This document shows, piece after piece, positions 3-37,957 of a stretch of DNA of 48,327 nt. The stretch is taken from assembly GCA_046597595.1 (NCBI GenBank), contig JBKJKH010000651.1, positions 1-48,327 of the forward strand, in the 5' to 3' direction. Under the pieces are notes generated by a model that searched no databases, was not told where the DNA came from, and saw nothing but the letters and a program-made list of their open reading frames with translations. The position numbers and the translations under genes were made by a program. This DNA is from Gemmatimonadaceae bacterium. GTDB lineage: Bacteria; Gemmatimonadota; Gemmatimonadetes; Gemmatimonadales; Gemmatimonadaceae. How positions within the stretch are numbered: the first letter of the stretch is position 1; every line of letters begins with the position of its first letter.

Positions 3-1397
3 GCGCTGTCGCTCCTCTTTCGCTACAACTACATACCCGCGCCCCATTCAATCTACGCCGGAGTGCACAAAGTCGTTCCGGGCACCATGCTCACCTTCAC
101 AGCGGCGGAAGCTGAGCCTGAAACGTGCACGTACTGGAGTGCGCGGGAGATGACCGAGCGGGGACTCGCAGATCCGTTGCGCGGCTCCGATGCAGACATC
201 ATCGAGGCGTTCGAGGCGGGACTTCGGCGCACGGTTCGCCAGGAGATGGTCGCGGATGTGCCGTTAGGCGCATTCCTGTCCGGAGGGATCGACTCGTCCA
301 CGATCGTGGCGATCATGCAGGCCGAGAGCGCGCGACCCGTCCAGACGTTCACAATCGGCTTTCACGAGGCGGATTACAACGAAGCCGTTCATGCGCGCGC
401 GGTCGCACGGCACCTCGGCACGGATCACACCGAGCTCTATGTTACGTCGCAACAAGCACTCGACGTCGTCCCGAAGCTCCCCGCGCTCTTCGACGAACCG
501 TTCGGCGACTCGTCGCAAGTCCCGACGTTCCTGGTCGCGCAGCTGGCGCGCCGGTCCGTAACGGTTTCGCTGTCTGGAGACGGCGGTGACGAAATGCTTG
601 GCGGGTACAACCGGTATTTCCTCGGCGAGCGTTTATGGAATGCCATGTCACCGGTGCCTGCTGCTGCGCGCCGCTTGATGGTGCGCGGAATACGCGCCGT
701 GCCTGCACGCCGGTGGGATGCCCTCTATCGAGCGGGGGCCGTAGCGCTGCCGGCAAAATACCGCCTGCGCGTTCCCGGCGACAAGATCCACAAGCTCGCC
801 GGCATTCTCGGCGTGGAGTCGCCCGAGGCGATGTATCGCGAGCTGGTGTCCCACTGGCGCGAGCCGTCGCGTCTTGTCATTGGTGGCCACGAACCAGAGA
901 CTGTGCTGACAGCGCGGGGCGGGTGGCCCGAAGCCCCGACCTTTGTCCATCGCATGATGTACCTCGATACGGTGTCGTATCTCCCGGACGACATCATGGT
1001 GAAGGTGGATCGCGCCAGCATGGGAGTGAGCCTCGAGACACGCGCGCCTTTTCTCGATCATCGGCTGGCCGAGTTGGCGTGGCGTGTCCCGCTCTCGCTC
1101 AAGGTGCGCGGCGGGCAGGGAAAATGGCTGTTGCGACAGATCCTGTACAAGCACGTTCCGCAGGCATTGGTCGAACGCCCTAAAATGGGGTTTGGAATTC
1201 CGATTGATCGCTGGCTGCGCGGACCGCTCAAGGAATGGGCGGAAGCGCTGCTCAACCCGGAGCGGTTGAAGCGGGAAGGCTATCTCGATCCCACCATGGT
1301 TCGGCAGAAGTGGGACGCGCACCAGAGCGGTGAGCGCAACTGGCAGTATTCGCTCTGGGGCGTGTTGATGTTCCAGGCATGGCTTGAAGAGCAATGA
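3..1397 (+). CDS. AsnB-family (asparagine synthetase-like) amidotransferase, 5'-truncated by window edge; only the synthetase/PP-loop part is visible
   Basis: Frame 3 is open from base 3 ([24 protein letters not shown] precedes the listed start at 63). PP-loop [23 protein letters not shown]-terminal [17 protein letters not shown]. Stop at 1395-1397. Confidence 0.9.
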
Positions 1398-1422
1398 TCG
1401 GACGTCCCGCACCAGCGATCAC

Positions 1423-2448
1423 ATGACTACCATCCTTGTCACCGGCGCCGCAGGCTTCATTGGCTTTCACACGAGCCGTCGGCTGCTGGACGCGGGATAT
1501 GACGTGGTCGGCGTCGATGTCGTCAACGCGTACTACGACGTATCCCTGAAGGAAGCGCGCCTCGCAGAGTTGGCAACACGGAAGGGATTCACATTCGTGC
1601 GGATGGACCTTGCCGACCGCGAGGCCGTTGCGGATCTGTTCAGGCGCCTCAAGCCGGCGCGCGTCATCCATCTGGCCGCGCAGGCAGGGGTGCGCTATTC
1701 GATAGCGAATCCATACGCCTACCTCGACAGCAATCTCGCGGCACACCTCAACATCCTTGAAGGCTGCCGGCATCAAGGTGTGGAGCACCTCGTCTATGCG
1801 TCATCGAGCTCGGTATACGGGGCCAACACGGCGATGCCATTTTCCGTGCACCACAATGTGGACCATCCCGTCAGCCTCTACGCCGCAACGAAAAAGGCCA
1901 ACGAGCTGATGGCGCATTCCTACAGTCATCTGTATGGCCTCCCCGTGACCGGCCTGCGCTTCTTCACCGTGTATGGTCCATGGGGCAGGCCGGACATGGC
2001 GATCTTCCTGTTCACGAAAGCGATTCTCGAGGGCAAGCCGATCGAGGTGTACAACAATGGGCAGATGCGTCGCGACTTTACCTACATCGACGACATCGTT
2101 GAAGGGGTCGTACGGGTCATGGAGCGCGTCGCCGCTCCGGATCCCGGATGGTCGAGTGCGGTGCCCGATCCCGGCACGAGCCGGGCGCCGTATCGCCTGT
2201 ACAACATCGGGAACAGTGAGCCAGTCGCGCTGACGCACATGATCGACGTGCTCGAGCGCCTGCTGGGACGCCGAGCGGAGCGAACGATGATGCCAATGCA
2301 GGCGGGGGATGTGCTCGCGACGTTCGCCGACGTTGCCGACCTCGAACGCGACATCGGCTTCAAGCCCTCGACATCGCTTGAAGTGGGGTTGCAGAAGTTC
2401 CTGGACTGGTACCGGAGCTATTACGGCGTTCCCGCGACTCCAGGCTGA
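1423..2448 (+). CDS. Extended-SDR nucleotide-sugar epimerase, UDP-glucuronate 4-epimerase-like
   Basis: Start moved to ATG 1423 ([16 protein letters not shown]). GxxGxx[19 protein letters not shown] (YxxxK), [24 protein letters not shown]. This string set matches the Cap1J/LpsL-type UDP-GlcA 4-epimerase clade as I remember it. Confidence 0.8.
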
Positions 2449-3746
2449 TGGGCATCGAAAGCGAGGCGGGGCGGTTGGTCGATCTCGCGGGATGGATCGT
2501 CTACGGGCTCACCTTTCTCGTTCCCCTGCTCGCGCGCGAACTGCGGCAGAATGGTCGCGCGACACTGGTCGTGTGGATCTCTCTCCTCGCGCATCAACTG
2601 CTGGCACTTCGCAATGCCTATCTGGGCGGCTTGTCATTCGACGCGCTGGCCTTTCACATGACCGCCGAGCGACTGTCGCATACGGAATGGTACTTTGGCA
2701 TCGGGGAGCATTTTTACGGCCCCGCGCTGGGATACCTCTACCGTACGCTCGGACTCTCGACGATGCTCGGTGTCCAGCTGTCGATTCTCGCCTTCGTGGC
2801 GTCGTGCATCGTATTCGCGAAACTTGCTCGCCTCCTCGGAGTCGAGAAGTACACCGTGCCGATGCTCGCGATCTACGCGCTGGCACCTGCGATGCTCATG
2901 CTGACCTCAACAACAATTCGCGAGCCGTACCAGATCCTGTTCTTCATGACAGCGGTGTATGCAGGTCTTCGGTACCGGATTCACGGTGACCTGCAGTACC
3001 TCGGTGCGTGTGTGGCCAGCGCGCTGCTCATGGGTGTCTTCCACAACGGGCTCATTGCGTTCGCCCCCGTGCTCGTGAGCCTGATCGCACTCTGGCGGAT
3101 CCACTCGACCCGCGTTCGACGTGGTTTCATCTCGCGTCGCGGGCTTGTGCTTCTCGTCTCCGTACTACCGGTCGTCGCCTTGGGAGTCGGTTTTGTCGGG
3201 AGGCTCGCCGCCGTCGGCATCACCGGCTCCAACGCGTTGCAGGTGCTTGGTACGCGCCGAGTGCTGACGGCAGTGGCGCGCTATCGCGAGGGGGGCATGG
3301 ACGTCACCGCGCGCGCGACATACGGTGTCCGCCTTGATCTCTCGTCGCCGGGAGGTGCTGCGCGGTCCGTGGTGCTGATCGCCGCGTACTACATGTTCGC
3401 GCCCTTCCCGTGGCAAGTGCGCTCCCCCCTGGATGCGTACGGCGCGATGGAATCCATTCTGCGACTGGTCCTGCTCATCGGCGCGGTCCGGCTCTGGATG
3501 CACCTGCGAGGTCCGCCGCGCCGAGTCGTCGCGGTGATGCTGGTGCTCTATTTCGGACTGGCCGCGATGTGGGGGATCGGAACAGTCAATTACGGCACTG
3601 CGCTCCGCCACCACCTCACCACGACCTGGATTCTGCTCCTGCTCGGCGGGCCCGCGGTTATCGACGCGGTCGCGCGTGGCATGCAACGGCTTACGTCTGC
3701 CCGCGATCCCGATGCGGACGGGCCGCTCGTGGCCAGCCGTGTCTGA
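2448..3746 (+). CDS. Polytopic inner-membrane protein (about 10-11 predicted TM segments); candidate Wzy-type polymerase / O-antigen-ligase-like / GT-C-like protein
   Basis: ATG overlaps the upstream TGA by 1 nt (TGATG at 2446-2450). Successive hydrophobic runs (LAGWIVYGLTFLVPLLA, MLGVQLSILAFVASCIVFA, VPMLAIYALAPAMLMLT, GLVLLVSVLPVVALGVGFV, VVAVMLVLYFGLAAMWGIG, TTWILLLLGGPAVI). An Arg-rich about 50-aa loop lies after TM7. No soluble-domain motifs. Confidence 0.55.
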   Translation: MGIESEAGRLVDLAGWIVYGLTFLVPLLARELRQNGRATLVVWISLLAHQLLALRNAYLGGLSFDALAFHMTAERLSHTEWYFGIGEHFYGPALGYLYRTLGLSTMLGVQLSILAFVASCIVFAKLARLLGVEKYTVPMLAIYALAPAMLMLTSTTIREPYQILFFMTAVYAGLRYRIHGDLQYLGACVASALLMGVFHNGLIAFAPVLVSLIALWRIHSTRVRRGFISRRGLVLLVSVLPVVALGVGFVGRLAAVGITGSNALQVLGTRRVLTAVARYREGGMDVTARATYGVRLDLSSPGGAARSVVLIAAYYMFAPFPWQVRSPLDAYGAMESILRLVLLIGAVRLWMHLRGPPRRVVAVMLVLYFGLAAMWGIGTVNYGTALRHHLTTTWILLLLGGPAVIDAVARGMQRLTSARDPDADGPLVASRV

Positions 3747-3750
3747 CGTC

Positions 3751-4923
3751 ATGCAACGCGTGGCACCACGGAGGCCTCGCGTCTGTCACATCATCACCGG
3801 CCTGCACACGGGAGGAGCGGAGATGATGCTCCTCAAGCTGCTGACCTCGCCGGGCGCGGAGCGCATCGAGTCCCGCGTGATCACGCTGATTCCGGAAGGA
3901 TCGATCGGTTCGCGATTGCGCGACGCCGGCGTGGTGGTCGAATCGCTCGAGATGTCGCGCGCGATTCCTTCTCCACTTGCCGTGCCCCGACTGGCGGCGC
4001 GCCTGCGCGCATGGCGGCCTGATTTGGTGCAGGGCTGGCTGTTGCAGGGGAACCTGATGGCCACGATGGCCGCACGACTCGCATTCCTCCGGGTCCCCGT
4101 GCTCTGGAATGTGCGATGGGCATTGTACGACCTCGAAACGGAATCGAAGCGTTCCCGGGCGCTCCTGCGCCTCAGCGGGATGCTCTCGCGCAACCCCGAG
4201 CGCGTGCTGTTCAACTCACATCGAGCACTCGAGCAGCACGCGAAGCTGCTTGGCTACGATCCCACGCGCTCGTTCGTGATACCAAACGGCTTTGATCTGC
4301 AACGCTTCCAACCCGACGTGTCAGCTCGGGCTGAAGTGCGGCGCGAGCTTTCCGTCCCGGATGACGCGGTGCTGGTTGGCCTGATCGCGCGCTATCACCC
4401 GATGAAGGACCATGCGAATGCGCTCGCTGCTGCAGCGCGCCTCATCCGCGATGGGCGCAAGGCGGTGTTTCTCTTCGCGGGTCGCGATGTCGACGCCTCC
4501 AACGAGACACTCATCGCCGGAGTGCGCGCGCTGGCGCTTGAACCGCATGTGCGCCTGCTCGGTGAGCGCCACGATACGCCGCGCCTGTTTGCTGCGCTCG
4601 ATCTGTACTGGACCGCTTCGTGGGCGCGCGGCGTCGCCGAGGGCTTTCCGAACGTGCTTGGCGAAGCGATGGCGTCGGGAGTGCCCTGCGTCGCGACGGA
4701 TGTCGGCGATGCCGCCTGGGTGCTCGGCGACGTCGGCCGTGTCGTACCGCCGCACGATGCCGATGGGCTGGCTGCGGCTGCCTCCGAGTTGCTGGACCTG
4801 TCTCCAGGTGCGTTCCGCGCCGAAGGCGTCCGGGCGCGTGAACGCATCGCTCGTCAATTTGCGATCGAAGATGTCGTTGAGCGATACCACGCCGTCTACC
4901 GCGAGATGCTCGGCATCACTTGA
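3751..4923 (+). CDS. Glycosyltransferase, GT4 (GT-B, group 1)
   Basis: Start moved to ATG 3751 (MQRVAPRRPRVCHIITGLHTGGAEMMLLKLL). C-terminal EGFPNVLGEAMASGVPCVATDVGD (E-x7-E region). The ORF at 3676 overlaps the upstream gene and is probably an ORF-finder extension. Confidence 0.85.
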   Translation: MQRVAPRRPRVCHIITGLHTGGAEMMLLKLLTSPGAERIESRVITLIPEGSIGSRLRDAGVVVESLEMSRAIPSPLAVPRLAARLRAWRPDLVQGWLLQGNLMATMAARLAFLRVPVLWNVRWALYDLETESKRSRALLRLSGMLSRNPERVLFNSHRALEQHAKLLGYDPTRSFVIPNGFDLQRFQPDVSARAEVRRELSVPDDAVLVGLIARYHPMKDHANALAAAARLIRDGRKAVFLFAGRDVDASNETLIAGVRALALEPHVRLLGERHDTPRLFAALDLYWTASWARGVAEGFPNVLGEAMASGVPCVATDVGDAAWVLGDVGRVVPPHDADGLAAAASELLDLSPGAFRAEGVRARERIARQFAIEDVVERYHAVYREMLGIT

Positions 4924-6850
4924 AGCGGACGTCGCGCTGCTCCGCCCAGCGCACCAGGTTGATCCAGCGCCAGATGCGCCAGTTAAATGCGCTTCTTCCA
5001 TCCTGGACGGCCTGCCAGTCCCGTCGCATTTCAGGGACGTTGAGCGGACCGATCCGTCGCGCCGTGTCGCTCGACAGCACGGCGTCCACCCATTGCGTTG
5101 CTGAAGTGAGCCAGCTTTTCTCTGGAGTCGAGAAACCGATCTTGTCGCGGCGATCGAGCACGGCATCCGGAACGATCCCGCGCATCGCCGTACGGAACAC
5201 CGATTTGCTGACTCCCCTTGGCGACATGATGTACTCCTCCGGCAGGGAGAGGAGGAAGTCGGCCAGCTTCGGCGTGAGGAAGGGAACCCGGCTCTCGACG
5301 GAGAACGCCATTGAATTCCTGTCCTCGTACCGCAGGAGCGACAGCAGTCCCTGTTCGACCGAGTCAGCGAGCAGTTCGCGCATGACGAGCGAACTCCCGC
5401 GCCGCGATGGGGGCGGGACGATCGCGCCGCGGTCTGCGAACCACTTGCCATTGAGCCACGTCGGTGCCTGCCCTCGACTCGAGTAGAGGAGGCGCTTGGC
5501 GAGCGGACGCAGCTGGGTCGGCAAGAGCCGCCCGCCCGCCTGCGCGAGCAGTTCCGACCCACTTGCATGCGGAAGGCGCGCGGCGGCCGATCCGAACTGC
5601 AAGGCCTGCGCGATGTCTCCGCCGCGGAGCAGAGTCGCGAGCCGCGCGCTGAGGAAGTTCGAGTACCCTGCCAGGAGTTCATCCGCACCTTGCCCATCGA
5701 GCATCACCTTGATGCCCTTTTCGTGCGCGAGGCGGAAGACGCGATGCTGCGCGTAGATGCTGGTGCTGCCGAAGGGCTCGTCCTGCGTCGCAATCACGTG
5801 ATCGAGATCGGCAAGCAGCTCTGCCTGGTCGGTGCGCGTCTTGTGCACGGTCGCTCCGGCGGCCTCGCCGACCAGATCAACCCATCGTTCCTCACTGATC
5901 GACGGATCATCCGCGATATAGCTGAATGCGTGAAGCTCGATGCCTGGCTCGACGTGCCGCATTGCCATGACAATCGCCGAAGAGTCGATGCCTCCCGAAA
6001 GCGCCGCGCCTACCGGCACGTCGCTGCGGAGGTGAAGCCGGATGCTCTCCAGGAAAAGCGCGCGCAACTCATCCGCTGCGCTTGCGAAGGAGAGAGGCGA
6101 CTGTCGCTCCGTCTGCACTCGCCAGTACCGGGCCGGCGACGGCACTCCGGCATGCGGTGCTGCGAGGTCGATCTCCAAGTGGTGCGCGGCGGCCAGCTGA
6201 CTGATGCCGGAGATCATCGTGTCGCCGGTATCGTCAGTCAATCCGAGCGTCAGGTAGCGATGCAGCGTCTTCGGGTTGGCGTCGCGCGTGATACCCGGCA
6301 GTTCGAGCAGCGCCTTCATCTCCGATGCGAACGCGAAGCCACCGTGCCACGTCGAATAGAAGAGCGGCTTGATGCCGAAGAAGTCGCGCGCGAGGAGGAG
6401 GCGGTTCCGTGCGCGGTCCCACAGGGCGAACGCGAACATGCCCGTGAGGCGGGGCAGGGCACCCACGCCCCAATGAATGAGCGCGTGCAGCAGCACCTCG
6501 GTGTCCGTGTGCGAACGGAACACGACTCCTTCGCGTTCGAGTTCTCCACGTAGCTCGAGGTAGTTGTAGATCTCGCCGTTGTAGATGATCGTCCAGCGCC
6601 CGTCGGGCGTCGACATCGGCTGCCAGCCGGCCTGGCTCAGGTCGAGGATGGAGAGGCGGCGATGCGCAAGCACAAACTCCGTCCCGCGCAGCGTCGTGAT
6701 GTCGCGTGTGAGGCAGAGCGCACCATCGCGGGTGCCCGCGAAGCCCCAATCGTCCGGGCCGCGATGCGCGATGACGTCTGATGCACGCTGCACGGCCTCA
6801 ATGTCTACCGCCGTCCCGGCAGGGCGGGCCCATCCGAAAATTCCGCACAT
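4916..6850 (-). CDS. AsnB-family glutamine-hydrolysing amidotransferase (paralogue 2)
   Basis: MCGIFGW (Cys2 Ntn nucleophile), HRGPDD, HRRLSILDLS, YNGEIYNY, TDTEV, PP-loop [35 protein letters not shown]. 644 aa. Confidence 0.92.
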   Translation of the reverse strand: MCGIFGWARPAGTAVDIEAVQRASDVIAHRGPDDWGFAGTRDGALCLTRDITTLRGTEFVLAHRRLSILDLSQAGWQPMSTPDGRWTIIYNGEIYNYLELRGELEREGVVFRSHTDTEVLLHALIHWGVGALPRLTGMFAFALWDRARNRLLLARDFFGIKPLFYSTWHGGFAFASEMKALLELPGITRDANPKTLHRYLTLGLTDDTGDTMISGISQLAAAHHLEIDLAAPHAGVPSPARYWRVQTERQSPLSFASAADELRALFLESIRLHLRSDVPVGAALSGGIDSSAIVMAMRHVEPGIELHAFSYIADDPSISEERWVDLVGEAAGATVHKTRTDQAELLADLDHVIATQDEPFGSTSIYAQHRVFRLAHEKGIKVMLDGQGADELLAGYSNFLSARLATLLRGGDIAQALQFGSAAARLPHASGSELLAQAGGRLLPTQLRPLAKRLLYSSRGQAPTWLNGKWFADRGAIVPPPSRRGSSLVMRELLADSVEQGLLSLLRYEDRNSMAFSVESRVPFLTPKLADFLLSLPEEYIMSPRGVSKSVFRTAMRGIVPDAVLDRRDKIGFSTPEKSWLTSATQWVDAVLSSDTARRIGPLNVPEMRRDWQAVQDGRSAFNWRIWRWINLVRWAEQRDVRFK

Positions 6851-8013
6851 CAGCGCTTCACGTCGCTCATCGTGCCAGAATATAAGCGTCCATACAGCGC
6901 GCTCAGGTCTTCACACCAGCGTGTCGCGCTGAACTTCCGCGCCACCACGTCACGGGCAGCTCCACGCATTCGCGCAAGGGTGGCCTCGTCGGTTCGCATC
7001 GCGCGCCGCATCGCGGCATGCAATCCGGACGGCGAATGTTCTGCAAGGAATCCGCTGACGCCATCCTCCACGATCTCGCGCGCCCCTTCCGTGTCTGACA
7101 CGATGGGCACCACGCCCGCCGCCATCGCTTCCAGCAGGGCGTGATTTGCAAACACAATGTCGCTTGGCAGGACAAAAAAACGTGCTCGGGCGTACCATGC
7201 GGCCGGGTCGGTAAACTCGAGGATCTCAATACGGTCGCTTGCCGACCTGCGCGCCCGCTCCTGAACGGACGCAATCGCATGGGACACATGCATGTCGGGC
7301 AGGAGCCCCAGCACGGCCGCGCGCGCCGAGATCGCGTCGCTGCCACGAAGCGCGTCGAGAAACCAGTCGAGATGCCGCTCGAGGATCACCCGGTTCGTCC
7401 AGAGGAAGTCGATATCGCGTTCCGGCTCCGGTTCACCGGCGCCTCGAGTCGGCACAGCAGGCTGCGCGACGCCGTTCGGCAGGAAGACAGCGCGGCGGGC
7501 GCCCAGTCGCTCGACGACGCGGCCCTGGTACGGCTCACGAAACCAGACTACATCGGCCTCAGCGTAACAGCGGCGCATGCTCCAGCGCAGCAACGGTCCG
7601 GCCTCGTCAAAGTTCAGCAGGTCGCCGCGCTCCACGACGATCACCCGAACTCCTGCCGCTTTTGCGAGCGCCACATAGAGCCACGCGTATCGGCCTCCGG
7701 GGTAGACCTCAACGTGATGGAGGGCTTTCTGCGCCTCGCGCAGGTACGCGCGTACCTGCGCCATCCGGGTCAGCGGGCCCGGCGCTAACAGGATGAGCTG
7801 ATTGCCTTCAGGCAGGTGGCTGGCAGAGTCACCGCGGGAGTCTGCGGTAAACACGTCGAAACGGAATCCGCGCGCGTTCATTCCCAACACCTGAAGGCGG
7901 TTCTTGGGAGCGAAAGTATCGAGACCGAGAATCGCGATCCTCGATAGGTGCAGATCTGCCGACACAGGCAAGAATGGCGCGCTCAATGGGTCGACGTTAG
8001 AAGCGGGGGACAA
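6850..8013 (-). CDS. Glycosyltransferase, GT4 (GT-B, group 1)
   Basis: C-terminal LPSDIVFANHALLEAMAAGVVPIVSDTEGAREIVEDGVSGFL. Its stop overlaps the downstream AsnB start by 1 nt at 6850. Start uncertain: the ORF opens at 8013, and in-frame GTG at 7965 (VSADLHLSRIAILGLD) is an alternative. Confidence 0.85.
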   Translation of the reverse strand: MSPASNVDPLSAPFLPVSADLHLSRIAILGLDTFAPKNRLQVLGMNARGFRFDVFTADSRGDSASHLPEGNQLILLAPGPLTRMAQVRAYLREAQKALHHVEVYPGGRYAWLYVALAKAAGVRVIVVERGDLLNFDEAGPLLRWSMRRCYAEADVVWFREPYQGRVVERLGARRAVFLPNGVAQPAVPTRGAGEPEPERDIDFLWTNRVILERHLDWFLDALRGSDAISARAAVLGLLPDMHVSHAIASVQERARRSASDRIEILEFTDPAAWYARARFFVLPSDIVFANHALLEAMAAGVVPIVSDTEGAREIVEDGVSGFLAEHSPSGLHAAMRRAMRTDEATLARMRGAARDVVARKFSATRWCEDLSALYGRLYSGTMSDVKR

Positions 8014-8102
8014 GGCGTAAAGATAATCACTGCACGGGCTTGCGTCACTCCCAGAAGTTCCGTGATATTACTGGGCTACCCGTCTCATACGCCGCCGATT
8101 CC
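8014..8102. promoter_or_regulatory. Candidate divergent promoter/operator region between GT (minus) and wecB (plus)
   Basis: Non-coding if wecB starts at GTG 8103. Visibly more AT-rich than its surroundings. Imperfect inverted repeat TAATCAC (8024-8030) / GTGATATTA (8062-8070). No consensus promoter identified. Confidence 0.3.
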
Positions 8103-9155: not shown

Positions 9156-9178
9156 CTTCGACCTAACTTTCACGCCAG

Positions 9179-13136: not shown

Positions 13137-13144
13137 CCGAAACG

Positions 13145-23468: not shown

Positions 23469-23474
23469 CCGGCG

Positions 23475-30686: not shown

Positions 30687-30687
30687 G

Positions 30688-31335: not shown

Positions 31336-31338
31336 GGA

Positions 31339-32001
31339 TCACAGCGAAATCTCGTCCGTGGACCTTTTGTCGGGTCGCGTCCGCTCGGTGACGAAGAGTT
31401 CCTTGTCACCCGTCGACTTCATGATGAGTGCACCGGCTCCGATAACGCACGATTGGCCAATGGTGACGCCGTCGCGCAAGGTTGCATTCACGCCGACAAA
31501 ACTGAAATCACCAATGCGGCAATTCCCGCTCACTACCACGTGCGAAGTGATGAAGCAGTGATCGCCGATCACGGAGTGATGGCCGATGTGGTTCCCACTC
31601 CACAGCACGGTATCGCTGCCAATCGTCACGAACGGTTGAATCGTGTTGTCCTCGAAGACGAATGTATTGTCGCCCACGACGTTGTTGCTCCAGAGCGTGA
31701 CACTGGGGTGCACGAAGCTCACGAGGGAATACCCTCTTGCCTTCACGTCCCCGTACAATCTTGCGCGCACCTGATTGAGCTTCGCGTAGCCGACGGCGAC
31801 AAACATTGCCACCTCGTGCGGCGGAAAGTGATGCTCGATCTCATCCAGCGGGATCAGGGGCAGGCCGAGAAAGTGATCGTCCTTCACATAGTCCCGGTCA
31901 GCCGTGAATCCCACGACGTCGTACGCCTTGAGTTCCGTGAAATAGCAATGCACGACTTCGGCGAACAGGCTGGTGCCCACGATGACCACCTTGCGAGTCA
32001 C
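31339..32001 (-). CDS. NeuD/PglD-family sugar N/O-acyltransferase (left-handed beta-helix)
   Basis: N-terminal Rossmann-like KVVIVGTSLFAEVV. Hexapeptide-repeat C-terminus (IGSDTVLWSGNHIGHHSVIGDHCFITSHVVVSGNCRIGDFSFVGVNATLRDGVTIGQSCVIGAGALI). Confidence 0.8.
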   Translation of the reverse strand: MTRKVVIVGTSLFAEVVHCYFTELKAYDVVGFTADRDYVKDDHFLGLPLIPLDEIEHHFPPHEVAMFVAVGYAKLNQVRARLYGDVKARGYSLVSFVHPSVTLWSNNVVGDNTFVFEDNTIQPFVTIGSDTVLWSGNHIGHHSVIGDHCFITSHVVVSGNCRIGDFSFVGVNATLRDGVTIGQSCVIGAGALIMKSTGDKELFVTERTRPDKRSTDEISL

Positions 32002-33077
32002 GAGACCTCCACGGGATTCGGTGCGCGGGGTAGCAGGCGGCTGAAAGGCGCCACGAAAAAGAACGGGAACTCGCGCAGGAGTTCCTCACGTGTGGCCTGC
32101 AAGATCGAGCGATCGAGCACCCGCGTATAGTAGGAGTAGTGGCGTTCCACCGTTCCCCACCGGCGTTTATAGTCGTACACGCCGGCCTGGGTGAGCCAGG
32201 TTCCACCCCAGTTCCACCAGCGACAGCCGCGCGCAACTGCGTCAACCATTGCGCGAAACACGAGCAAGCTGAGTGGTTGTGCGGAACGATGCGCCTCGAC
32301 TGTCGCCGGCGTGAAATATTCGACCGTGCCGTTGAAATAAAAACAGAGCAAGGCTGCGATCGGTTCGCCATGGAGTCGCGCGATCCACACGCCGTAGCCG
32401 GATGTCTCGAAATGCCCGGCAATCTCCGCAAAGAACTCCCACGACTTGGCGAGGCCGCCAATCGCCTGCATGTTCTCGACGTGAGTTTCATGCAGAAACC
32501 GCAGTGCGTCGTCGCCATGCGCCAGCGAGACGTCAATGCCTTCTTTCATCGCGCGGCGAATATTGCGCGGCCGAGGGTCGGAAAAGCTGCCGAGCAATTG
32601 CTGTTCGACGTCCGGACCATGCGCGGGAAGGGGCGTCAACTGTCCGATCCGTTCGTCGCGAATGGTGAAGCGCGCATCATCTTCGTATAGCGCCCGCTCC
32701 GCCGTGAATGGCGAAGTCACGATCGTCGCGGCCACGCAGTTATCCGCCTCGGCGCACGCATGGAACGCATCGATCAATGCACGCGCTGCGTCGGGTCGCG
32801 TCGTAATCACGCCGCCGTTGCTGCCATAATACGGCAACGAGTTCAACACCCGGCCGAGCGCGCCGCGCTTGCTGACCATCGCCGGCAATACCCCGACGAT
32901 CGCGCCGCCGGCATCGCGCGCGATGAGGTAGCGAGGCGTCGCGCCTGTGATCGCGACGAGGAGTGTGCGATAGGGGCTGCTGGCGTACAGGAGCGCATCC
33001 TCGTTGGTGAGGAGAAATGCGTCGTACTCGAGGGACGCCGTCGGGCTCAACTCCGACACGTGAATCTCGCCGCTCAT
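31998..33077 (-). CDS. FemAB-family / Acetyltransf_6-like protein (putative aminoacyl- or acyl-transferase)
   Basis: AIVGVLPAMVSKRGALGRVLNSLPYYGSNGGVI, and later AALLCFYFNGTVEYFTPATVEAHRSAQPLSLLVFRAM ... TQAGVYDYKRRWG. This is the pattern I recall for FemAB-like proteins of EPS loci. 4-nt overlap with the downstream NeuD-like gene. Confidence 0.6.
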   Translation of the reverse strand: MSGEIHVSELSPTASLEYDAFLLTNEDALLYASSPYRTLLVAITGATPRYLIARDAGGAIVGVLPAMVSKRGALGRVLNSLPYYGSNGGVITTRPDAARALIDAFHACAEADNCVAATIVTSPFTAERALYEDDARFTIRDERIGQLTPLPAHGPDVEQQLLGSFSDPRPRNIRRAMKEGIDVSLAHGDDALRFLHETHVENMQAIGGLAKSWEFFAEIAGHFETSGYGVWIARLHGEPIAALLCFYFNGTVEYFTPATVEAHRSAQPLSLLVFRAMVDAVARGCRWWNWGGTWLTQAGVYDYKRRWGTVERHYSYYTRVLDRSILQATREELLREFPFFFVAPFSRLLPRAPNPVEVS

Positions 33078-33086
33078 GCCGTGCCG

Positions 33087-34265
33087 TCAGCGAGCCGCGC
33101 CGGCTGCCGCCAGCTCGACCAGCGAGCCCACTACAGTCTCTGACTCCGCGTTGGTCATCCCCGCAAACAGCGGCAGCGTGATCGAGAGCTGCTGCGCCAG
33201 ATAGGCAACGGGATAGTCCGCCGGCGTGATGCGGTACTTGTTCGCGTAGAACTGGGTGTGTGCCGCAGAATGCGTACCCTGGCGCGTCGTGATGCCGCGC
33301 TCTTCCAGCGCCGTCATGAGGGCATTGCGCTGCTGGTGCAGGTCTTCGCAACGAGCCAGTGTCGGCGCTTCCGGCTGGTACACGCACACGTACGACTGTT
33401 GCCCGTGCACATAGTCCACGTGCCGGAACGGTGTCTGGAGCCACGGCACGTCCGCGAGCGCGGCATCGTACCGCGCGGCGGCGGCACGGCGCGACGCCTG
33501 GATGGCCTGTGACTTCCGCATCTGGCTCACCCCGAGGGCGCCCTGGATGTCCGTCATCCGGAAGTTGAAGCCGAGGTGCGGATACTCCGCGAGCAGGAAT
33601 GACTTCGCCTGGCCGTGACGCTGGAAGTCCGAGCGGCTCGCGCCGTGATCGCGCAACGAGCTGCACAGGGTTGCGCCCTCATCCGAGGCCGTCGTGATCA
33701 TGCCACCTTCGCCGGTGGTGATCGCCTTGCGCGGATGAAAGGAGAAGCACCCGTAGTCACCGAACACACCGGCATGCGTTCCCTTGTACCAGGAATCGAA
33801 TGCACACGCGGCGTCTTCGACCACCAACAGCCCGTGCTTCTTCGCGATGGCCATGATCGGATCCATGTCCGCGAGCAACCCGAACAGGTGGACCGGCATG
33901 ATCGCCTTTGTGCGCGACGTGATCCGCTCCTCGATCTTCGTGACATCGATGTTGAACGTGGCGAGGTCAATATCCACGAACACCGGCGTGGCCCCGACAT
34001 ACTCCACCGCGTTGGCCGTCGAGATCCACGTGAACGCCGGCACCAGCACTTCGTCCCCGGGTCCGATCCCCAGCGCGGCGAGCGCGATGTGCAGCGCGGT
34101 CGTACACGACGTCGTGGCGAGGCTGTGCCTGGCCCCGCTCATGTCGCAGAACAGTTTCTCAAACTCGCGAACAAACCTGCCTTGCACCACCCAGCCGGAC
34201 TTGAGCGGCTCCTGGATGATCGCGAAATCGGTCTCGTCGAAAACCGTCTTGGTTATTGGAATCAC
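33087..34265 (-). CDS. DegT/DnrJ/EryC1/StrS-family PLP-dependent sugar aminotransferase
   Basis: Start moved to GTG 34265 (VIPITKTVFDETDFAIIQEPLKSGWVVQG, the canonical family N-terminus). CFSFHPRKAITTGEGGMI (PLP-Lys). The ORF opens at 34424, but the extra 53 aa are Arg-rich and not family-like. Confidence 0.85.
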   Translation of the reverse strand: MIPITKTVFDETDFAIIQEPLKSGWVVQGRFVREFEKLFCDMSGARHSLATTSCTTALHIALAALGIGPGDEVLVPAFTWISTANAVEYVGATPVFVDIDLATFNIDVTKIEERITSRTKAIMPVHLFGLLADMDPIMAIAKKHGLLVVEDAACAFDSWYKGTHAGVFGDYGCFSFHPRKAITTGEGGMITTASDEGATLCSSLRDHGASRSDFQRHGQAKSFLLAEYPHLGFNFRMTDIQGALGVSQMRKSQAIQASRRAAAARYDAALADVPWLQTPFRHVDYVHGQQSYVCVYQPEAPTLARCEDLHQQRNALMTALEERGITTRQGTHSAAHTQFYANKYRITPADYPVAYLAQQLSITLPLFAGMTNAESETVVGSLVELAAAGAAR

Positions 34266-34429
34266 GCCTTTGGCCAGAAAATGTCGCCGTGTTCGATGGC
34301 GTAAGATACCCGCCCGGGACCCAAAATTCCAAGAAAGCTCCCGGCATGGTCCGTTGTTAAGTTGCACTCTCCTTAGGAGTTCGGCGCGCGCCGGCTCACG
34401 CCATCCCTGAAACTTGCCTGGCACTTCCG
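34266..34429. promoter_or_regulatory. Candidate divergent promoter region (DegT-led minus-strand train vs CE4-like/methyltransferase gene)
   Basis: 164-nt non-coding gap between divergent starts (GTG 34265 minus, ATG 34430 plus). Locally AT-richer (ccaaaattccaagaaagc, gttgttaagttgcac). Confidence 0.35.
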
Positions 34430-36031
34430 ATGCCCCTCAAGCTGACCGAACCGGTTTTCTGTTTCACTGCCGACATGGACTGGAATGCGGATTCGGCGAT
34501 CCGCGCAGAGACCGACCTGTTCGCCCGCCACGGCGCGAAGCTCACGGTGTTCGCGACGCATGCACCGCCGCTGCTGCAGGAGTCGCCGAACCTGCAAGTG
34601 GGAGTGCACCCCAACTTCCTCCCGGGCTCCACGCATGGGGGGACGATGAAAGAGGTGCTCGATCACGTCTTCGGCCTCTATCCCGAGGCCGAGACGTTCC
34701 GGTCACACTCGTACTTCGACAACCAGCAGCTGTCGGCGGAGATGAGCCAGCGCGGGATCAGGTACGACGCGAATCTCTGCCTCTACCTGCAGGACGGGCT
34801 GGCCCCACTCGCGCATTGTCACGGTTCGTGGCGCTTCCCGAGCTTTCTGGATGACAATATCCACTGGTTTCACGGCGGCTCCTGGAAGCTGGAGGACATC
34901 AAGGCAAAGCTGTTTACTCCCGGCCTCAAGATCTTCAATTTCCACCCGTACCCTGTCGCGCTGAACATCCCCACCCTCGCGTACTATCACGCGAAGCGGT
35001 CGCTTCTCAAGACACTCTCTCCAGACGACATCGCGGCGCATCGGTACAGCGGGGCCGGACCGGAGACGTTCCTGGAGGAACTCCTGGCGTTTCTCCAGCC
35101 GCGGGCCGAAACACACCTGCTCCGGGATCTCTACCGGGCCCACATTGACGACGCCGGTGAGCGACCGCGGGACATCGCTGGCCGGCCGGCGGTCAAGGCG
35201 GATTACGCGACGGCCAGCGAGGAGGAGCGCAAGGCGCTGGTCCGGGATCAGTACAACCGCATGGACGCGACCAACATCTACATCACGTCCCGCGACTTCC
35301 ACCTTCGTGAGCTCGAGATCGCGGCCATCAAGCGCAGGATCTCTTCCGGCAGTATCCTCGATTGCGGATGTGGCAACGGGTACACGCTCCTGTCCCTTGC
35401 CAAGGTGCTGCCCGGCGTCCGCATGAAAGGCGTGGACTTCTCCGAAAACCTCATTGCCGGCGCCAATACGCTGAAGGCGCAATTCGCAGCGGAGCTCAAG
35501 TCGACGCCCGAGTTTGAGGTGGACGACATCTTCCGGTATATCGCGCACGACGCCGAAACGTTCGATGTGATCATCACCGAGCGCGTGATTGTCAACCTTC
35601 CCACCGAAGCGCTCCAGGAGGAGATTATCCTGGGCATCATCCGAAAGCTGAAGCCCGGTGGCAGCTACCTCATGGTGGAAGGAACGCTCGAAGGCTTCGC
35701 GCGGCTGAACGTGCTGCGCGCCGATGCCGGTCTCGAAACCATTCCTGACGTGTATCCGGGGAACGAGAGCTCGAAGAAGCCGGAAGAAGATCGCATTCGG
35801 GCCATCGTCCAGCAGTCAGGCGTCGCCGAGATTGTCGCGGTCGACAACTTCAGCTTCTACAATCTCGTCTCCAAGATTGTGCATCCGCTGCTCGTCGCGC
35901 CGGAGCAGCCGCAATTCTCAGCGAAGATCAATCAATTTGCCGCGCTGGCGCAGGAGGGGCTCTCGCGGGCAGGCATCGCGCTGCCCGATATCGGCGCCGG
36001 AAAGCTGTTCGTAATTCGCCGCATGCCGTAG
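34430..36031 (+). CDS. Two-domain protein: N-terminal ArnD/CE4-like domain (tentative) fused to C-terminal class I SAM methyltransferase
   Basis: N-terminal VFCFTADMDWNADSAIRAETDLFARHGAKLTVFATH ... VGVHPNF. C-terminal motif I ILDCGCGNGYTLLSL, FDVIITERVIVNL, LKPGGSYLMVEG. A single-gene plus-strand block between two minus-strand blocks. Confidence 0.6.
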   Translation: MPLKLTEPVFCFTADMDWNADSAIRAETDLFARHGAKLTVFATHAPPLLQESPNLQVGVHPNFLPGSTHGGTMKEVLDHVFGLYPEAETFRSHSYFDNQQLSAEMSQRGIRYDANLCLYLQDGLAPLAHCHGSWRFPSFLDDNIHWFHGGSWKLEDIKAKLFTPGLKIFNFHPYPVALNIPTLAYYHAKRSLLKTLSPDDIAAHRYSGAGPETFLEELLAFLQPRAETHLLRDLYRAHIDDAGERPRDIAGRPAVKADYATASEEERKALVRDQYNRMDATNIYITSRDFHLRELEIAAIKRRISSGSILDCGCGNGYTLLSLAKVLPGVRMKGVDFSENLIAGANTLKAQFAAELKSTPEFEVDDIFRYIAHDAETFDVIITERVIVNLPTEALQEEIILGIIRKLKPGGSYLMVEGTLEGFARLNVLRADAGLETIPDVYPGNESSKKPEEDRIRAIVQQSGVAEIVAVDNFSFYNLVSKIVHPLLVAPEQPQFSAKINQFAALAQEGLSRAGIALPDIGAGKLFVIRRMP

Positions 36032-36058
36032 TGCCTCACGACTCCCGCGTCCAGAGGA

Positions 36059-37957
36059 TCACGCTCCGTCTGGACGCTGGCCGTCGCGGAAGATCCGCAG
36101 CCACCACTCGAAGCACACCAGCGACCAGATCAGCAATCGCCGATTCTGCTTCCCGGTGAAATGTTCGTCGAGCAGGGAGCGGACGGTGTCCGGCTGCAGG
36201 TAGTCATACACGCGCGCCCGATCGGTGGCGAACGTCGAACGGATATAGTCGATGCTCTGGCCCTTGAACCAGCTGGCATCGGGCGCGGAAAACCCTTGCT
36301 TCGCGCCGTGCGCGTATTGCGTCGGCACATAGCGCTCGAGCGCCTTGCGCAGGATGATCTTGCCATCGCTGGTCTGCTCGAAATACTGCCTGGACTTTTC
36401 CCCCGGCGTATTCTCATTCAGCCGGACCACTTCGGTCAGGTTCCGGAGCTTGTGCCTGACCGGCACGCGCATCGCAAAGTCAACGAGGTCGTTGTCGAGA
36501 AAGGGCACGCGCGTCTCCAGCCCATGCGCCATGCTGAGTTTGTCCTCGACGGCGAGGAGCCCCTGCAGGAACGTCCGTGACTCGAAGTACAGCGACCGAT
36601 TCACGTAATCCTCAGGCGACGGCACCCCGGTGACATGCCCGTTCATGACTGCGGCGAACACGTCCTTCGTCTGGTGGCCCAGCACGCGAGGGTAGGCGCT
36701 GCCCTGGAAGAACGAGCCCTTGAGGCTGTCCGGAATCAGGCGCTGCCAGTATTTGTAGTACTTGTCGAGATATTCCGCCGGGCCGTCATTGTTCACAGCG
36801 CGGTAATACCGCCATGGATATCCGGCAAACAACTCGTCGCCGCCCGCTCCGGAGAGCACCACCTTCACGAACTTGCTCGCGAGCCGCGACACGTAGAAGT
36901 TCGGGTACGATTGCCCGACGCGGAGATCCTCGAGATGCCAGATGAGCTGCGGCATCACCCGCTCCATGTCGCCAGCCTTGAGGACGACTTCATAGTGTTC
37001 CGTGCCGTAGCGGCTGGACAGGAACTCCGCCTTCGTGCGCTCGTCAAAGCCCAACTCCATCCCGGAGGCGGACGAGAGGTCGAAGCCGCACGTGAAGGTC
37101 TTCAGGTTCTTGAAGCTCTTGCCGGCAAGCGCGGTGATCGCGCCCGAGTCCATGCCGCCGCTGAGATACGCCCCGATCTCGACGTCGCTCATGAGCTGGC
37201 GGTTGACCGCCTGCTCGAACAGGCGGTCCAATTCCTCGACATACTCGGACTCGGTGCCCGTGTCCCCCTCGCGAAAGTCGTAGTCCCAGTAGCGAGAAAG
37301 GCGCGGCGCGCTCTGGCCGCCCAGCGACACCGTCATCGTGTGCGCCGCCGGCAGCGTCTTCACACCCTCGAAGAGCGTGAGGTCCGAAAAGATGTTCTGG
37401 AACGAGAAGTATTCGTTCAGCGCCTCGATCGAAACATCCACCGAGAAGTCGGGAAGCTGCTGGATTGACTTGATCTCGGAGCCGAACGCGAACGTGTGGC
37501 CCTTCGCGTAGTAGTACAGCGGCTTGATACCGTAGCGGTCACGCGCCAGGAACAGCTCGTTCGTTCTATTGTCCCAGATGGCGAAGGCGAACATCCCGTT
37601 GAAGCGCTTCACGCAATCCGCGCCCCATTCGACATAGGCGCGCAGTACCACTTCCGAGTCAGTCCGTGAGCGGAAGGGGTGACCCTTCGCCTCGAGCTGA
37701 GCCCGCAACTCGAGATGGTTGTAGACCTCGCCATTATAGGTGATCACCACCGAGCCGTCCTCCGTCTGCATGGGCTGATGGCCCAGTGGGGAGAGGTCGA
37801 TGATCGACAGCCGGCGATGTCCCAGGCCGATGAACGAGTTCGTCCAGAACCCCTCACCGTCGGGACCGCGGTGGCGCACCACGTCGGTCATCCGTCTCAA
37901 CTGGGAAATCGAGACGGGACGGCCGTCCACGTGAAACAGGCCGGTGATTCCGCACAT
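36059..37957 (-). CDS. AsnB-family glutamine-hydrolysing amidotransferase (paralogue 5)
   Basis: MCGITGLF, HRGPDGEG, HRRLSIIDLS, YNGEVYNH, TDSEV, PP-loop LSGGMDSGAIT, SGAGGDE, VEDKLSMAHGLETRVPFLDN, AKQGFSAPD. 632 aa. Confidence 0.92.
   Translation of the reverse strand: MCGITGLFHVDGRPVSISQLRRMTDVVRHRGPDGEGFWTNSFIGLGHRRLSIIDLSPLGHQPMQTEDGSVVITYNGEVYNHLELRAQLEAKGHPFRSRTDSEVVLRAYVEWGADCVKRFNGMFAFAIWDNRTNELFLARDRYGIKPLYYYAKGHTFAFGSEIKSIQQLPDFSVDVSIEALNEYFSFQNIFSDLTLFEGVKTLPAAHTMTVSLGGQSAPRLSRYWDYDFREGDTGTESEYVEELDRLFEQAVNRQLMSDVEIGAYLSGGMDSGAITALAGKSFKNLKTFTCGFDLSSASGMELGFDERTKAEFLSSRYGTEHYEVVLKAGDMERVMPQLIWHLEDLRVGQSYPNFYVSRLASKFVKVVLSGAGGDELFAGYPWRYYRAVNNDGPAEYLDKYYKYWQRLIPDSLKGSFFQGSAYPRVLGHQTKDVFAAVMNGHVTGVPSPEDYVNRSLYFESRTFLQGLLAVEDKLSMAHGLETRVPFLDNDLVDFAMRVPVRHKLRNLTEVVRLNENTPGEKSRQYFEQTSDGKIILRKALERYVPTQYAHGAKQGFSAPDASWFKGQSIDYIRSTFATDRARVYDYLQPDTVRSLLDEHFTGKQNRRLLIWSLVCFEWWLRIFRDGQRPDGA

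Follow-up and report, generated by a model that had tools for sequence, protein, structure and literature searches.

Background

The O-polysaccharide of Bordetella contains three kinds of uronamide, namely L-GalNAc3NAcAN in the repeat, ManNAc3NAcAN in the linker and GalN3N4NAN in the cap (PMC2615507). The wbm locus contains wbmC, wbmI and wbmZ, which encode three glutamine-dependent amidotransferases (PMC2615507), and the precursor is made by a separate wlb locus (PMC2279256). WbpS of P. aeruginosa O6, WbqG of E. coli O121 and PGN_1234 of P. gingivalis have a genetic tie to uronamide formation (PMC7468200). Three asparagine synthases are encoded in psc1 of Rubrivivax (PMC3684757). In moenomycin biosynthesis, MoeH5 takes amines and amino acids besides forming the carboxamide (PMC8778134).

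Amidotransferase genes

The window analyzed here is the whole of a 48,327-nucleotide stretch of the metagenomic contig JBKJKH010000651.1 (assembly GCA_046597595.1) from a Gemmatimonadaceae bacterium, and it is crowded with genes for surface polysaccharide. Synteny also hints at Gemmatimonadota as the source. Five genes of the Asn_synthase family with intact amidotransferase domains were identified (Pfam and hmmsearch):

A1, 3..1397, plus strand: AsnB-type amidotransferase, cut off at its 5' end by the contig start, with 464 aa present (PF00733, 3e-120)
A2, 4916..6850, minus strand: complete AsnB-type amidotransferase, 644 aa (GATase_7 and Asn_synthase; TIGR01536, 429 bits)
A3, 9179..11119, plus strand: complete AsnB-type amidotransferase of 646 aa and a candidate for a WbmI-like uronamide synthase (domains, homologues, cassette)
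A4, 14493..16463, plus strand: complete AsnB-type amidotransferase, 656 aa (Pfam, NCBIfam)
A5, 36059..37957, minus strand: complete AsnB-type amidotransferase, 632 aa (Pfam, NCBIfam)

These are the five AsnB-family genes of the first-pass annotation, at the same coordinates. PF00733 was found in all of them with E-values from 3e-120 to 4e-68, and GATase_7 and GATase_6 were also present on the four complete ORFs. No sixth Asn_synthase copy was detected by hmmsearch among the window ORFs of at least 150 aa. Judged against the 646-aa orthologues P0241 and P0244, A1 lacks about 180 N-terminal residues; its orthologues (60-80% identity) start with MCGI(T/A)G. The true start of A3 is the ATG at 9179, and the public gene call P0001 begins 14 codons late, by which Cys2 is lost. 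A2 to A5 all retain the PP-loop, Cys2 and the motifs for glutamine binding, and every motif quoted earlier was recovered in the alignment: MCGI(F/S/A/T)G, HRGP(D/N), HRRLSI.DLS, YNGE.YN, SGG(I/L/M)DS, and DKIGF versus K(M/Q)GF. An insertion of roughly 20 residues is located between HRGP and HRRLSI in A2 and A4.

Pairwise identity among the five proteins is 26-39%, with A2 and A4 the closest pair (39%) and A3 and A5 at 35%. Each copy has orthologues of 49-80% identity in other phyla, against at most 39% among the paralogues, and the five are on this sequence basis old, divergent and apparently competent paralogues, as had been proposed. All five pass the generic model TIGR01536, "asparagine synthase (glutamine-hydrolyzing)". 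With the AsnB model PRK09431 they score 126-298 bits, far under its cut-off of 499, and the position equivalent to Glu348 is D, Q, Q, Q and A in A1 to A5, respectively; the subfamily models thus agree with the earlier view that none is a housekeeping AsnB. The best NCBIfam model of A1 and A5 is eps_aminotran_1, scored below its cut-off. Among solved structures, the hydroxyamidotransferase 7ylz is the top-scoring relative (profile score of 346 bits). PseA, which the first-pass annotation counted among the AsnB homologues, is doubtful as such and presumably belongs to the WbpG-type PP-loop family.

Gene cassettes

The following neighboring genes were assigned in the window:

SDR1, 1384..2448, plus strand: SDR partner of A1, read as UDP-hexuronate 4-epimerase-like (PDB matches and synteny)
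U1, 2448..3746, plus strand: membrane protein with about 7 hydrophobic segments, candidate polymerase or ligase-like (no Pfam match)
GT4a, 3676..4923, plus strand: glycosyltransferase (Pfam; weak match to PEP-CTERM stp2-type GT)
GT4b, 6850..8013, minus strand: glycosyltransferase downstream of A2 (Pfam)
2-epimerase, 8040..9155, plus strand: WbpI/WlbD-like UDP-2,3-diacetamido-2,3-dideoxy-glucuronic acid 2-epimerase (PDB 8sxv)
SDR2, 11116..12051, plus strand: WbmH/WbmG-like SDR (PDB 2q1w, WbmH, 5e-110, 371 bits; 2pzk, WbmG, 2e-86)
SDR3, 12048..13136, plus strand: WbmF orthologue, putative 3,5-epimerase (PDB 2pzj, WbmF, 2e-155, 520 bits)
U2, 13145..14473, plus strand: soluble divergent GT-B-like protein, paralogue of U3 with 32% identity (weak Glyco_trans_1_2 match)
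GT4c, 16319..17701, plus strand: GT4-like protein, ORF overlapping the 3' end of A4 (Pfam)
U3, 17718..19016, minus strand: soluble divergent GT-B-like protein (comparison with U2)
Wzt (with Wzt_C domain) and Wzm, 22194..24311, minus strand: ABC exporter of O-polysaccharide (Pfam)
NeuD/PglD-like N-acetyltransferase, FemAB/VimA-like transferase and DegT1 (C4-type sugar aminotransferase), 31339..34424, minus strand
WbmS-like deacetylase domain-methyltransferase fusion, 34430..36031, plus strand (PF22537, 8e-36)
SDR5, 37972..38961, minus strand: GalE/WbpP/WbgU-like SDR, conserved partner of A5
Wzz-like gene, 40336-41502

A3 is flanked on one side by a homologue of UDP-GlcNAc3NAcA 2-epimerase (392 bits to 8sxv versus 145 bits to E. 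coli WecB) and on the other by the WbmH/G- and WbmF-like SDRs, whose counterparts act in the L-GalNAc3NAcA(N) pathway of Bordetella. This cassette is kept in L001, L002, L049, L084 and L086, and A3 homologues share 67-80% identity across phyla. The PDB codes of WbmF, WbmG and WbmH were assigned in PMC2279256.

Directly after A1-type genes, SDR1 orthologues occur in Effusibacillus (L168, 66% identity) and in L085 (69%); in Effusibacillus a UDP-sugar 6-dehydrogenase lies two genes from the pair. The PDB matches of SDR1 are 5u4q (479 bits), 6zl6 (169 bits) and MoeE5 (6kv9, 142 bits), the last of which is a UDP-GlcA 4-epimerase. A U1-like gene is found at the equivalent position in L085 and L002.

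A2 orthologues were found in L085 (57% identity), L015 (49%) and L049 (44%), and A4 homologues of 46-57% identity occur in many phyla. The start of GT4c is probably later than 16319, because its ORF overlaps the 3' end of A4. GT4c homologues adjoin A4- and A2-type genes elsewhere, and GT4c-like genes neighbor A4 types in L083, L084 and a JGI contig. A5 orthologues (55-66% identity) adjoin SDR5 orthologues in L005, L040, L063, L079 and L084; a DegT1 homologue (47-56% identity) is present in three of these five loci.

Copy number in other loci

Among 80 sampled loci, each of at least 15 kb, 26 carry two or three copies (19 with two, 7 with three) and none carries four or more. Four copies each are present in two relatives of the locus, L084 and a Logan contig, and the order A1-A2-A3-A4 is conserved in one relative with 54-76% identity. 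The statement of the first-pass annotation that such loci hold one copy, occasionally two, is not supported, and Bordetella wbm and Rubrivivax psc1 are both known to have three. Elsewhere the cassettes are found separately, and in the window they form a mosaic.

Proposed function

The contig probably represents a wbm-like, ABC-transporter-dependent O-polysaccharide locus, in which each AsnB-type protein would most likely serve as a glutamine-dependent carboxylate amidotransferase in a cassette of its own. The five are probably not redundant; each belongs to a separate, widely distributed orthologue group and sits in its own conserved cassette. The most likely product is an O-polysaccharide of the wbm type whose uronamide residues are of several different kinds; the first-pass annotation had already proposed several different carboxamides, and the O-polysaccharide of Bordetella is a direct model for this.

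In the predicted reaction, glutamine would be hydrolyzed by Cys2, the sugar carboxylate would be adenylated with ATP by the PP-loop domain, and the acyl-adenylate and the released ammonia would yield the primary amide (uronamide). The sequences establish the integrity of the domains, the non-AsnB status, the orthologue groups, the synteny of the cassettes and the homology of the neighbors; the substrates, the products and a one-to-one match of amidotransferases to residue types are inferred. A3, with the 2-epimerase homologue and the WbmH/G- and WbmF-like SDRs, would likely provide a residue of the L-GalNAc3NAcAN type known from Bordetella; A1 and SDR1, read as a UDP-hexuronate 4-epimerase, likely a galacturonamide-type residue; and A5, with the GalE/WbpP-like SDR and the C4-type aminotransferase, likely a 4-amino-uronamide, possibly the chain cap. 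A2 and A4 are each coupled to GT4-like transferases.

Some results count against this function. Neither a UDP-sugar 6-dehydrogenase nor a WbpB-type oxidoreductase was found by Pfam in the 48 kb, so the uronic acids must come from elsewhere. Neither A2 nor A4 is partnered by a sugar-nucleotide enzyme that would hint at its substrate. With TIGR03108, which contains WbpS, the five proteins score 343-470 bits and do not reach the cut-off of 817.

Alternative explanations

It is possible, with a lower probability, that the contig joins at least two independent glycan loci, an ABC-transporter O-antigen locus and a Wzy-/Wzz-type locus, five being the sum of neighboring systems. The Wzm/Wzt exporter shares the window with the multi-TM protein U1 and a Wzz-like protein, about eleven GT-like genes are present, and the cassettes are combined differently elsewhere. 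However, no housekeeping gene was found by Pfam to interrupt the 48 kb, a relative shows synteny over the A1-A2-A3-A4 block, and Bordetella wbm likewise codes for the linker, backbone and cap functions of one molecule (PMC3849452). A joined locus is compatible with the uronamide function proposed above.

Rather unlikely is that copy number tells little of the chemistry, several of the paralogues being functionally overlapping uronamide synthases or inherited passengers of recombined cassettes and the glycan bearing one kind of amide or at most two. The repeat unit of Bordetella has a single C6 amide, for which all three amidotransferases are named as candidates (PMC2615507). O-antigen loci are mosaics made by horizontal transfer (PMC3849452), and so is the window a mosaic. 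On the other hand, the conserved neighbors differ between the types. Selection on each copy is indicated, since the complete copies keep every catalytic motif at no more than 39% identity, four types stand in conserved order in a relative, and four types also occur together in L084.

It is improbable that at least one copy, most plausibly of the A2/A4 clade, attaches amines, amino acids or hydroxylamine to the carboxylate in place of plain ammonia, as MoeH5 and TsnB9 do. The match to 7ylz and the insertion in A2 and A4 would fit, but none of the four complete copies has lost Cys2 or the glutamine-binding motifs, and no N-hydroxylase or amine-supplying gene was recognized in the window. The linking of amines or amino acids to uronates, raised by the first-pass annotation as a new use of the fold, has a precedent in MoeH5 (PMC8778134) and is thus not new in principle, and is disfavored here because all complete copies retain the glutaminase nucleophile. 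That the five are ordinary asparagine synthetases supplying Asn is hardly credible: they pass TIGR01536 and their homologues are so named in public sources, but they score far below the cut-off of the AsnB equivalog model, Glu348 is replaced, and they and their orthologues are all situated in glycan loci.

Comparison with known systems

With E. coli asparagine synthetase B (PDB 1ct9) the contig proteins share the fold, the Ntn glutaminase residues and the PP-loop; they differ in the Glu348 position and the PRK09431 score, in a C-terminal region about 80-100 aa longer, and in being encoded in a glycan locus. WbpS, WbqG and PGN_1234 (PMC7468200) have the same two-domain architecture, glycan-locus setting and predicted carboxylate-to-carboxamide chemistry, and eps_aminotran_1 is the top NCBIfam model for A1 and A5, at scores far under the cut-off. 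Those proteins occur as one copy per locus, whereas five distinct orthologue groups are combined on the contig.

The clusters of Rubrivivax gelatinosus (psc1), Thauera MZ1T and Rhodoferax (EPS cluster) are likewise large polysaccharide clusters with wbpS-like asparagine-synthase genes among GT4 genes (PMC3684757). There, three copies are spread over about 75 kb of a Wzx/Wzy and PEP-CTERM-type EPS cluster, whereas the contig has five in 38 kb and is of the wbm-like O-antigen type. The carboxamide of moenomycin unit F is made by MoeF5. The combination of MoeE5 and MoeH5 (PMC8778134), an SDR and an AsnB-type amidotransferase that modifies a sugar carboxylate, is mirrored by SDR1 and A1, but moenomycin is a phosphoglycolipid secondary metabolite and no surface polymer.

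Bordetella wbm (wbmA-wbmZ; PMC2615507, PMC2279256, PMC3849452) shares with the contig ABC-transporter export, a WbmS-like domain, WbmF-type (SDR3, 520 bits) and WbmG/H-type SDRs (SDR2, 371 bits to WbmH), a diacetamido-uronic acid precursor from outside the locus, and several glutamine-dependent amidotransferase genes per locus. In Bordetella three uronamide types match three amidotransferase genes in number, the genes there not being assigned to single residues. Differences are the host organism, five amidotransferases versus three, a WbpI/WlbD-like 2-epimerase encoded in the contig locus itself, a WbmE-like transglutaminase-fold deamidase not detected on the contig, and extra FemAB/Vim-like, WbqC, DAO and WbpM-like modules. 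The locus is an enlarged form of the wbm type of O-antigen locus known from Bordetella and not a new kind of system.

Window content and the five AsnB-type genes

The complete contig has a length of 48,327 bp and a G+C content of about 63%; in a scan of 39 tiling ORFs, surface-glycan genes filled all 48,327 bp. A search with hmmsearch of the window ORFs of at least 150 aa identified exactly five AsnB-type amidotransferase genes, as the first-pass annotation had claimed. They are numbered A1 to A5 from left to right.

A1: 3-1397, + strand, AsnB-type gene cut off at the contig start; PF00733 (Asn_synthase)
A2: 4916-6850, - strand, complete AsnB-type gene; PF00733 and GATase_6/7 class II glutaminase domain
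A3: 9179-11119, + strand, complete AsnB-type gene; PF00733 and GATase_6/7 class II glutaminase domain
A4: 14493-16463, + strand, complete AsnB-type gene; PF00733 and GATase_6/7 class II glutaminase domain
A5: 36059-37957, - strand, complete AsnB-type gene; PF00733 and GATase_6/7 class II glutaminase domain

Each of the catalytic motifs quoted in that annotation was found in the alignment. The Met-Cys nucleophile is kept at the N-termini of A2-A5 (MCGIFG, MCGISG, MCGIAG, MCGITG), the PP-loop SGG(I/L/M)DS is present in all five proteins, and the glutamine-site columns (HRRLSI Arg, YNGE Asn-Gly-Glu, DTE Asp) are invariant in the alignments. The truncated A1 gene very probably also codes for an intact glutaminase, because its orthologues at 71-80% identity, which have 646 aa, start with MCGI(T/A)G. 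In the public gene call for A3 (P0001, 632 aa) the start is placed 14 codons too far downstream, so that Met-Cys2 is lost; the ATG at 9179 (MCGISG) agrees with the start of the Calothrix homologue. The public start of an A1-type gene at 20810-21962 of comparison locus L084 is likewise too late and deletes the Met-Cys2 nucleophile. With such late starts, automated annotation would falsely imply a dead glutaminase.

Family placement

The five proteins were placed by HMM scores, orthologue identities and synteny. Against TIGR01536 (cut-off 267 bits) A2-A5 score 429-523 bits, and A1 stays at 252 bits because it is truncated. Together with Met-Cys, the glutamine site and the PP-loop, this score marks members of the AsnB superfamily. 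TIGR01536, a generic model, is the only one passed by the complete copies; with the NCBIfam subfamily models, neither the AsnBs nor most of their neighbors could be assigned specifically.

The expectation that these are not housekeeping AsnB proteins held up against the subfamily HMMs, as A1-A5 reach 126-298 bits with the equivalog NF006949/PRK09431 (cut-off 499). None of the five has the Glu of the E. coli SGEGSDE motif, which we take to be the catalytic Glu348 of AsnB; in a profile alignment to 1ct9 the position is D in A1, Q in A2, A3 and A4, and A in A5. Work by Meyer et al. in 2010 is said to have assigned Glu348 a role in beta-aspartyl-AMP formation. In a set of 113 AsnB-like sequences, made up of A1-A5 and 108 ORFs from related loci, 61 have Q at the equivalent position, 19 have D and 16 have E.

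The models of other subfamilies were not passed either. A2-A5 score 282-301 bits and the truncated A1 78 bits with the lasso cyclase model NF033535 (cut-off 525), and all five score 51-82 bits with the macrolactam cyclase model NF033561 (cut-off 300). AsnB relatives of the lasso and macrolactam cyclase types usually lack Cys2. The cut-off of the N-acetylglutaminylglutamine amidotransferase model was not approached by A1-A5. With eps_aminotran_1 (TIGR03108) the proteins reach 343-470 bits against a cut-off of 816.9, which is set for members of the XrtA/PEP-CTERM system; it is the best-scoring model for A1 and A5 only. The uronamide amidotransferases of the WbpS/WbqG type are assigned to this model (PMC7468200).

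Pairwise identity among A1-A5 is 26-39%, with 39% between A2 and A4 and 35% between A3 and A5. The description of the copies as old paralogues is confirmed, since nearer relatives occur in other phyla than within their own contig. Relatives were found at 60-80% identity for A1 (e.g., Effusibacillus, Gemmatirosa, Scytonema, Geobacter), 44-57% for A2, 67-80% for A3 (e.g., Pyrinomonadaceae, Desulfuromonadales, Calothrix), 46-57% for A4 and 55-66% for A5. A left border consisting of LEA_2, HflX GTPase, one further gene and an A1-type AsnB is common to the Logan contig nearest to the window (L085, 1-5110) and to Gemmatirosa kalamazoonensis CP007128 (L167, 4484-9947), a hint at an origin of the window in Gemmatimonadota.

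Copy number in related loci

Five copies had been regarded as exceptional, but Bordetella, Rubrivivax and our survey weaken this view. In the wbm O-antigen locus of B. bronchiseptica, three genes, wbmC, wbmI and wbmZ, encode glutamine-dependent amidotransferases (PMC2615507); 'asparagine synthase genes', a plural, are reported for a recently described wbm variant of 16 genes (PMC12243275); and the psc1 cluster of Rubrivivax, Thauera and Rhodoferax has three asparagine synthases (PMC3684757). A literature search for general reviews of multi-AsnB loci returned nothing useful.

The survey covered 160 loci, extending at most 10 kb to each side of an AsnB-family gene, 80 of them from GTDB species genomes and 80 from metagenomes. 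Among the 80 loci of at least 15 kb, 54 have one copy, 19 two, seven three and none four or more. Two richer loci were reached via the closest homologues of the window and stand outside this count: L084, on a 2-Mb contig (GCA_963852675.1), has A5-, A4-, A3- and A1-type genes inside 22 kb, and on a 20.3-kb Logan contig (L085/L086), A1-, A2-, A3- and A4-type genes stand in the same order as in the window, with identities of 54-76%; the contig end cuts the fourth. Two or three AsnB genes per glycan locus are common in environmental bacteria; sets of four or five are rare but recurrent and conserved, which argues for selection on each copy.

Three AsnB-like genes in direct tandem, spanning about 7 kb, were observed in genomes of Acidobacteriota and Vicinamibacterales (L045 4905-11941, L062 6864-14239, L076 6860-14242). 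Some of these tandem copies keep Glu at the 348-equivalent, and the arrangement differs in kind from that of the window.

Cassettes of A1, A3 and A5

The genes lie in a surface-glycan locus with uronic-acid nucleotide-sugar enzymes, as WbpS/WbqG-type genes do: a 2-epimerase homologue adjoins A3, and the short-chain reductase-type gene SDR1 (1384..2448) adjoins A1. The product of 8040-9155, upstream of A3, matches solved UDP-2,3-diacetamido-2,3-dideoxy-glucuronic acid 2-epimerases with 392 bits, and E. coli WecB with only 145 bits. Downstream of A3, SDR2 matches WbmH (2q1w, 5e-110) and WbmG (2pzk, 2e-86), and SDR3 matches WbmF (2pzj, 2e-155); the codes 2pzj, 2q1w and 2pzk are tied to the Wbm proteins in PMC2279256. 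The conversion of UDP-ManNAc3NAcA to UDP-L-GalNAc3NAcA in Bordetella is ascribed to WbmF, WbmG and WbmH (PMC2279256, PMC3849452). AsnB-SDR2-SDR3 blocks with 57-85% identity, some of them including the 2-epimerase, are also found in L001, L002, L049 (Caenispirillum) and L084.

SDR1 directly follows A1; its best solved relative is 5u4q (479 bits), and 6zl6 and MoeE5 come next. SDR1 is read as uronate 4-epimerase-like, because the latter two are UDP-glucuronate 4-epimerases. L085 also has the A1-SDR1 pair, and so does Effusibacillus lacus, with an SDR of 66% identity and a UDP-sugar 6-dehydrogenase two genes beyond the pair. The partner of A5 is SDR5 (37972..38961), which is GalE/WbpP/WbgU-like. 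An orthologue of the window aminotransferase DegT1 also accompanies the A5-type gene in several loci; the best solved relatives of DegT1 are C4 aminotransferases, with perosamine synthetase and ArnB outscoring WbpE.

No UDP-sugar 6-dehydrogenase or WbpB-type oxidoreductase was found in the 48 kb. The lack of the dehydrogenase was considered as an objection to a uronic-acid reading, and was dropped because of the 2-epimerase, the WbmF/H homologies and the precedent of Bordetella, where a separate wlb locus supplies the diacetamido-uronic acid precursor (PMC2279256).

The A2/A4 clade

A2 and A4 are flanked by glycosyltransferase-like genes rather than by sugar-nucleotide enzymes. Their neighbors are GT-B proteins similar to GT4c (the GT4-like ORF following A4) or to U2 and U3, in the window as well as in L049, L083, L084 and a JGI contig. 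The clade has Gln at the Glu348 position and an insertion of about 20 residues in the glutaminase domain, and its homologues occur in many phyla at 44-57% identity. A2 and A4 might each act together with a dedicated glycosyltransferase and amidate a carboxylate at the lipid-linked or polymer level; another possible substrate is a carboxylate of non-uronic type, for instance that of an N-acyl amino acid, a lactyl or a pyruvyl group.

U2 (13145-14473) and U3 (17718-19016) are soluble paralogues of about 435 aa, 32% identical, which bracket A4 and GT4c. Neither reaches the threshold of a Pfam family; even with Pfam E-values of up to 5 and a sequence search of the PDB, the sole match was a weak one to Glyco_trans_1_2. 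Homologues of both adjoin A2- and A4-type genes in L001, L049 and L084. If GT4c is read from the earliest start codon available to it, it shares 145 nt (16319-16463) with the 3' end of A4, so that its true start is probably further downstream.

Other modules of the window

A FemAB/VimA-like transferase with a weak match to pepcterm_femAB (31998-33077) is close to a fusion protein of a WbmS-like deacetylase and a methyltransferase (34430-36031). The two resemble the Wbp/Vim route of P. gingivalis and T. forsythia, which places Ser or Gly onto a de-N-acetylated diamino-uronic acid (PMC7468200). The region 24308-26524 encodes a WbqC-family protein followed by a 451-aa protein with a PseH-like GNAT in the C-terminal 170 residues and an N-terminal part of 270 residues without family. 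The 320-aa product of 29724-30686 has only faint similarity to the GH32 N-terminal domain and to beta-1,2-mannobiose phosphorylase (GH130-like); it is possibly a beta-propeller enzyme, a type unusual within an O-antigen locus. The right-hand module (42720-48251) comprises DegT2, U4 (434 aa, no family), a DAO-family FAD oxidoreductase and a WbpM-like dehydratase with a CoA_binding_3 N-terminus. In L080, U4-like, NeuD, DegT2-like and WbpM-like genes come after an A1-type gene. Pfam matches with E-values up to 5 and the PDB sequence search gave nothing usable for U1 and U4.

Proposed chemistry

The O-polysaccharide of Bordetella contains three types of uronamide residues: the repeat is L-GalNAc3NAcAN, the linker ManNAc3NAcAN plus GalNAc3NAcAN, and the cap a 2,3,4-triamino-2,3,4-trideoxy-galacturonamide (PMC2615507). 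The amidotransferase genes are spread over three segments of the wbm locus: wbmC belongs to the wbmA-wbmC segment, a predicted contributor to linker synthesis, wbmI comes after wbmF, wbmG and wbmH, the makers of the backbone precursor, and wbmZ is the boundary of the serotype-variable wbmO-wbmZ region (PMC3849452). We infer one amidotransferase per residue type, a logic that the window would follow with five cassettes. Several chemically different carboxamides, as the first-pass annotation proposed, remain the best reading of the five genes; its claim of an exceptional copy number is weakened, and its alternative, a new use of the adenylating fold, is disfavored.

With Cys2 retained, the enzymes would transfer ammonia to a sugar carboxylate and yield a primary amide, a reaction favored because both Cys2 and the glutamine site are kept. 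A variant nucleophile may take the place of ammonia, especially in A2 and A4, since the closest solved relative, 7ylz, is a hydroxyamidotransferase. Amine ligation of the MoeH5 type, which through that precedent would not be a new use of the fold, and cyclization are both disfavored by the kept Cys2 and glutamine site. A literature search for threonine-linking enzymes of the AglU type returned nothing useful.

Formation of uronamides removes negative charge from a surface polysaccharide. The cassette set A1/A2/A3/A4/A5, as seen in the window, L084 and the Logan contig, could represent a conserved class of poly-amidated, near-neutral O-polysaccharides in soil phyla. That this class exists and that A2/A4 form a functionally distinct branch of the family is, as a joint reading, rather improbable.

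Comparison with known systems

The window exporter is Wzm/Wzt, and its Wzt carries a Wzt_C domain, which recognizes the chain terminus. Like Bordetella wbm, the window has export by an ABC transporter (ABC_tran plus Wzt_C, ABC2_membrane), the set of WbmF and WbmG/H SDRs (SDR3, SDR2) and a WbmS-like protein (PF22537, 8e-36). Unlike wbm, it contains no periplasmic transglutaminase-fold deamidase of the WbmE type; no transglutaminase-family Pfam match was obtained on the 39 window ORFs. The Bordetella uronamides are part of an O-antigen required for full virulence and complement resistance (PMC2615507).

The chief value of the locus lies in the enzyme-substrate pairings that it suggests: A3 with WbmF, WbmH and the 2-epimerase, A1 with a putative uronate 4-epimerase, and A5 with an SDR and a C4-type aminotransferase. 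These hypotheses could be transferred to WbmC, WbmI and WbmZ. The current annotation of such glycan-locus genes as 'asparagine synthase' is probably misleading. By analogy, the locus is an enlarged addition to the known uronamide O-antigen systems of the wbm/WbpS type, and extends a known theme rather than opening a new one.
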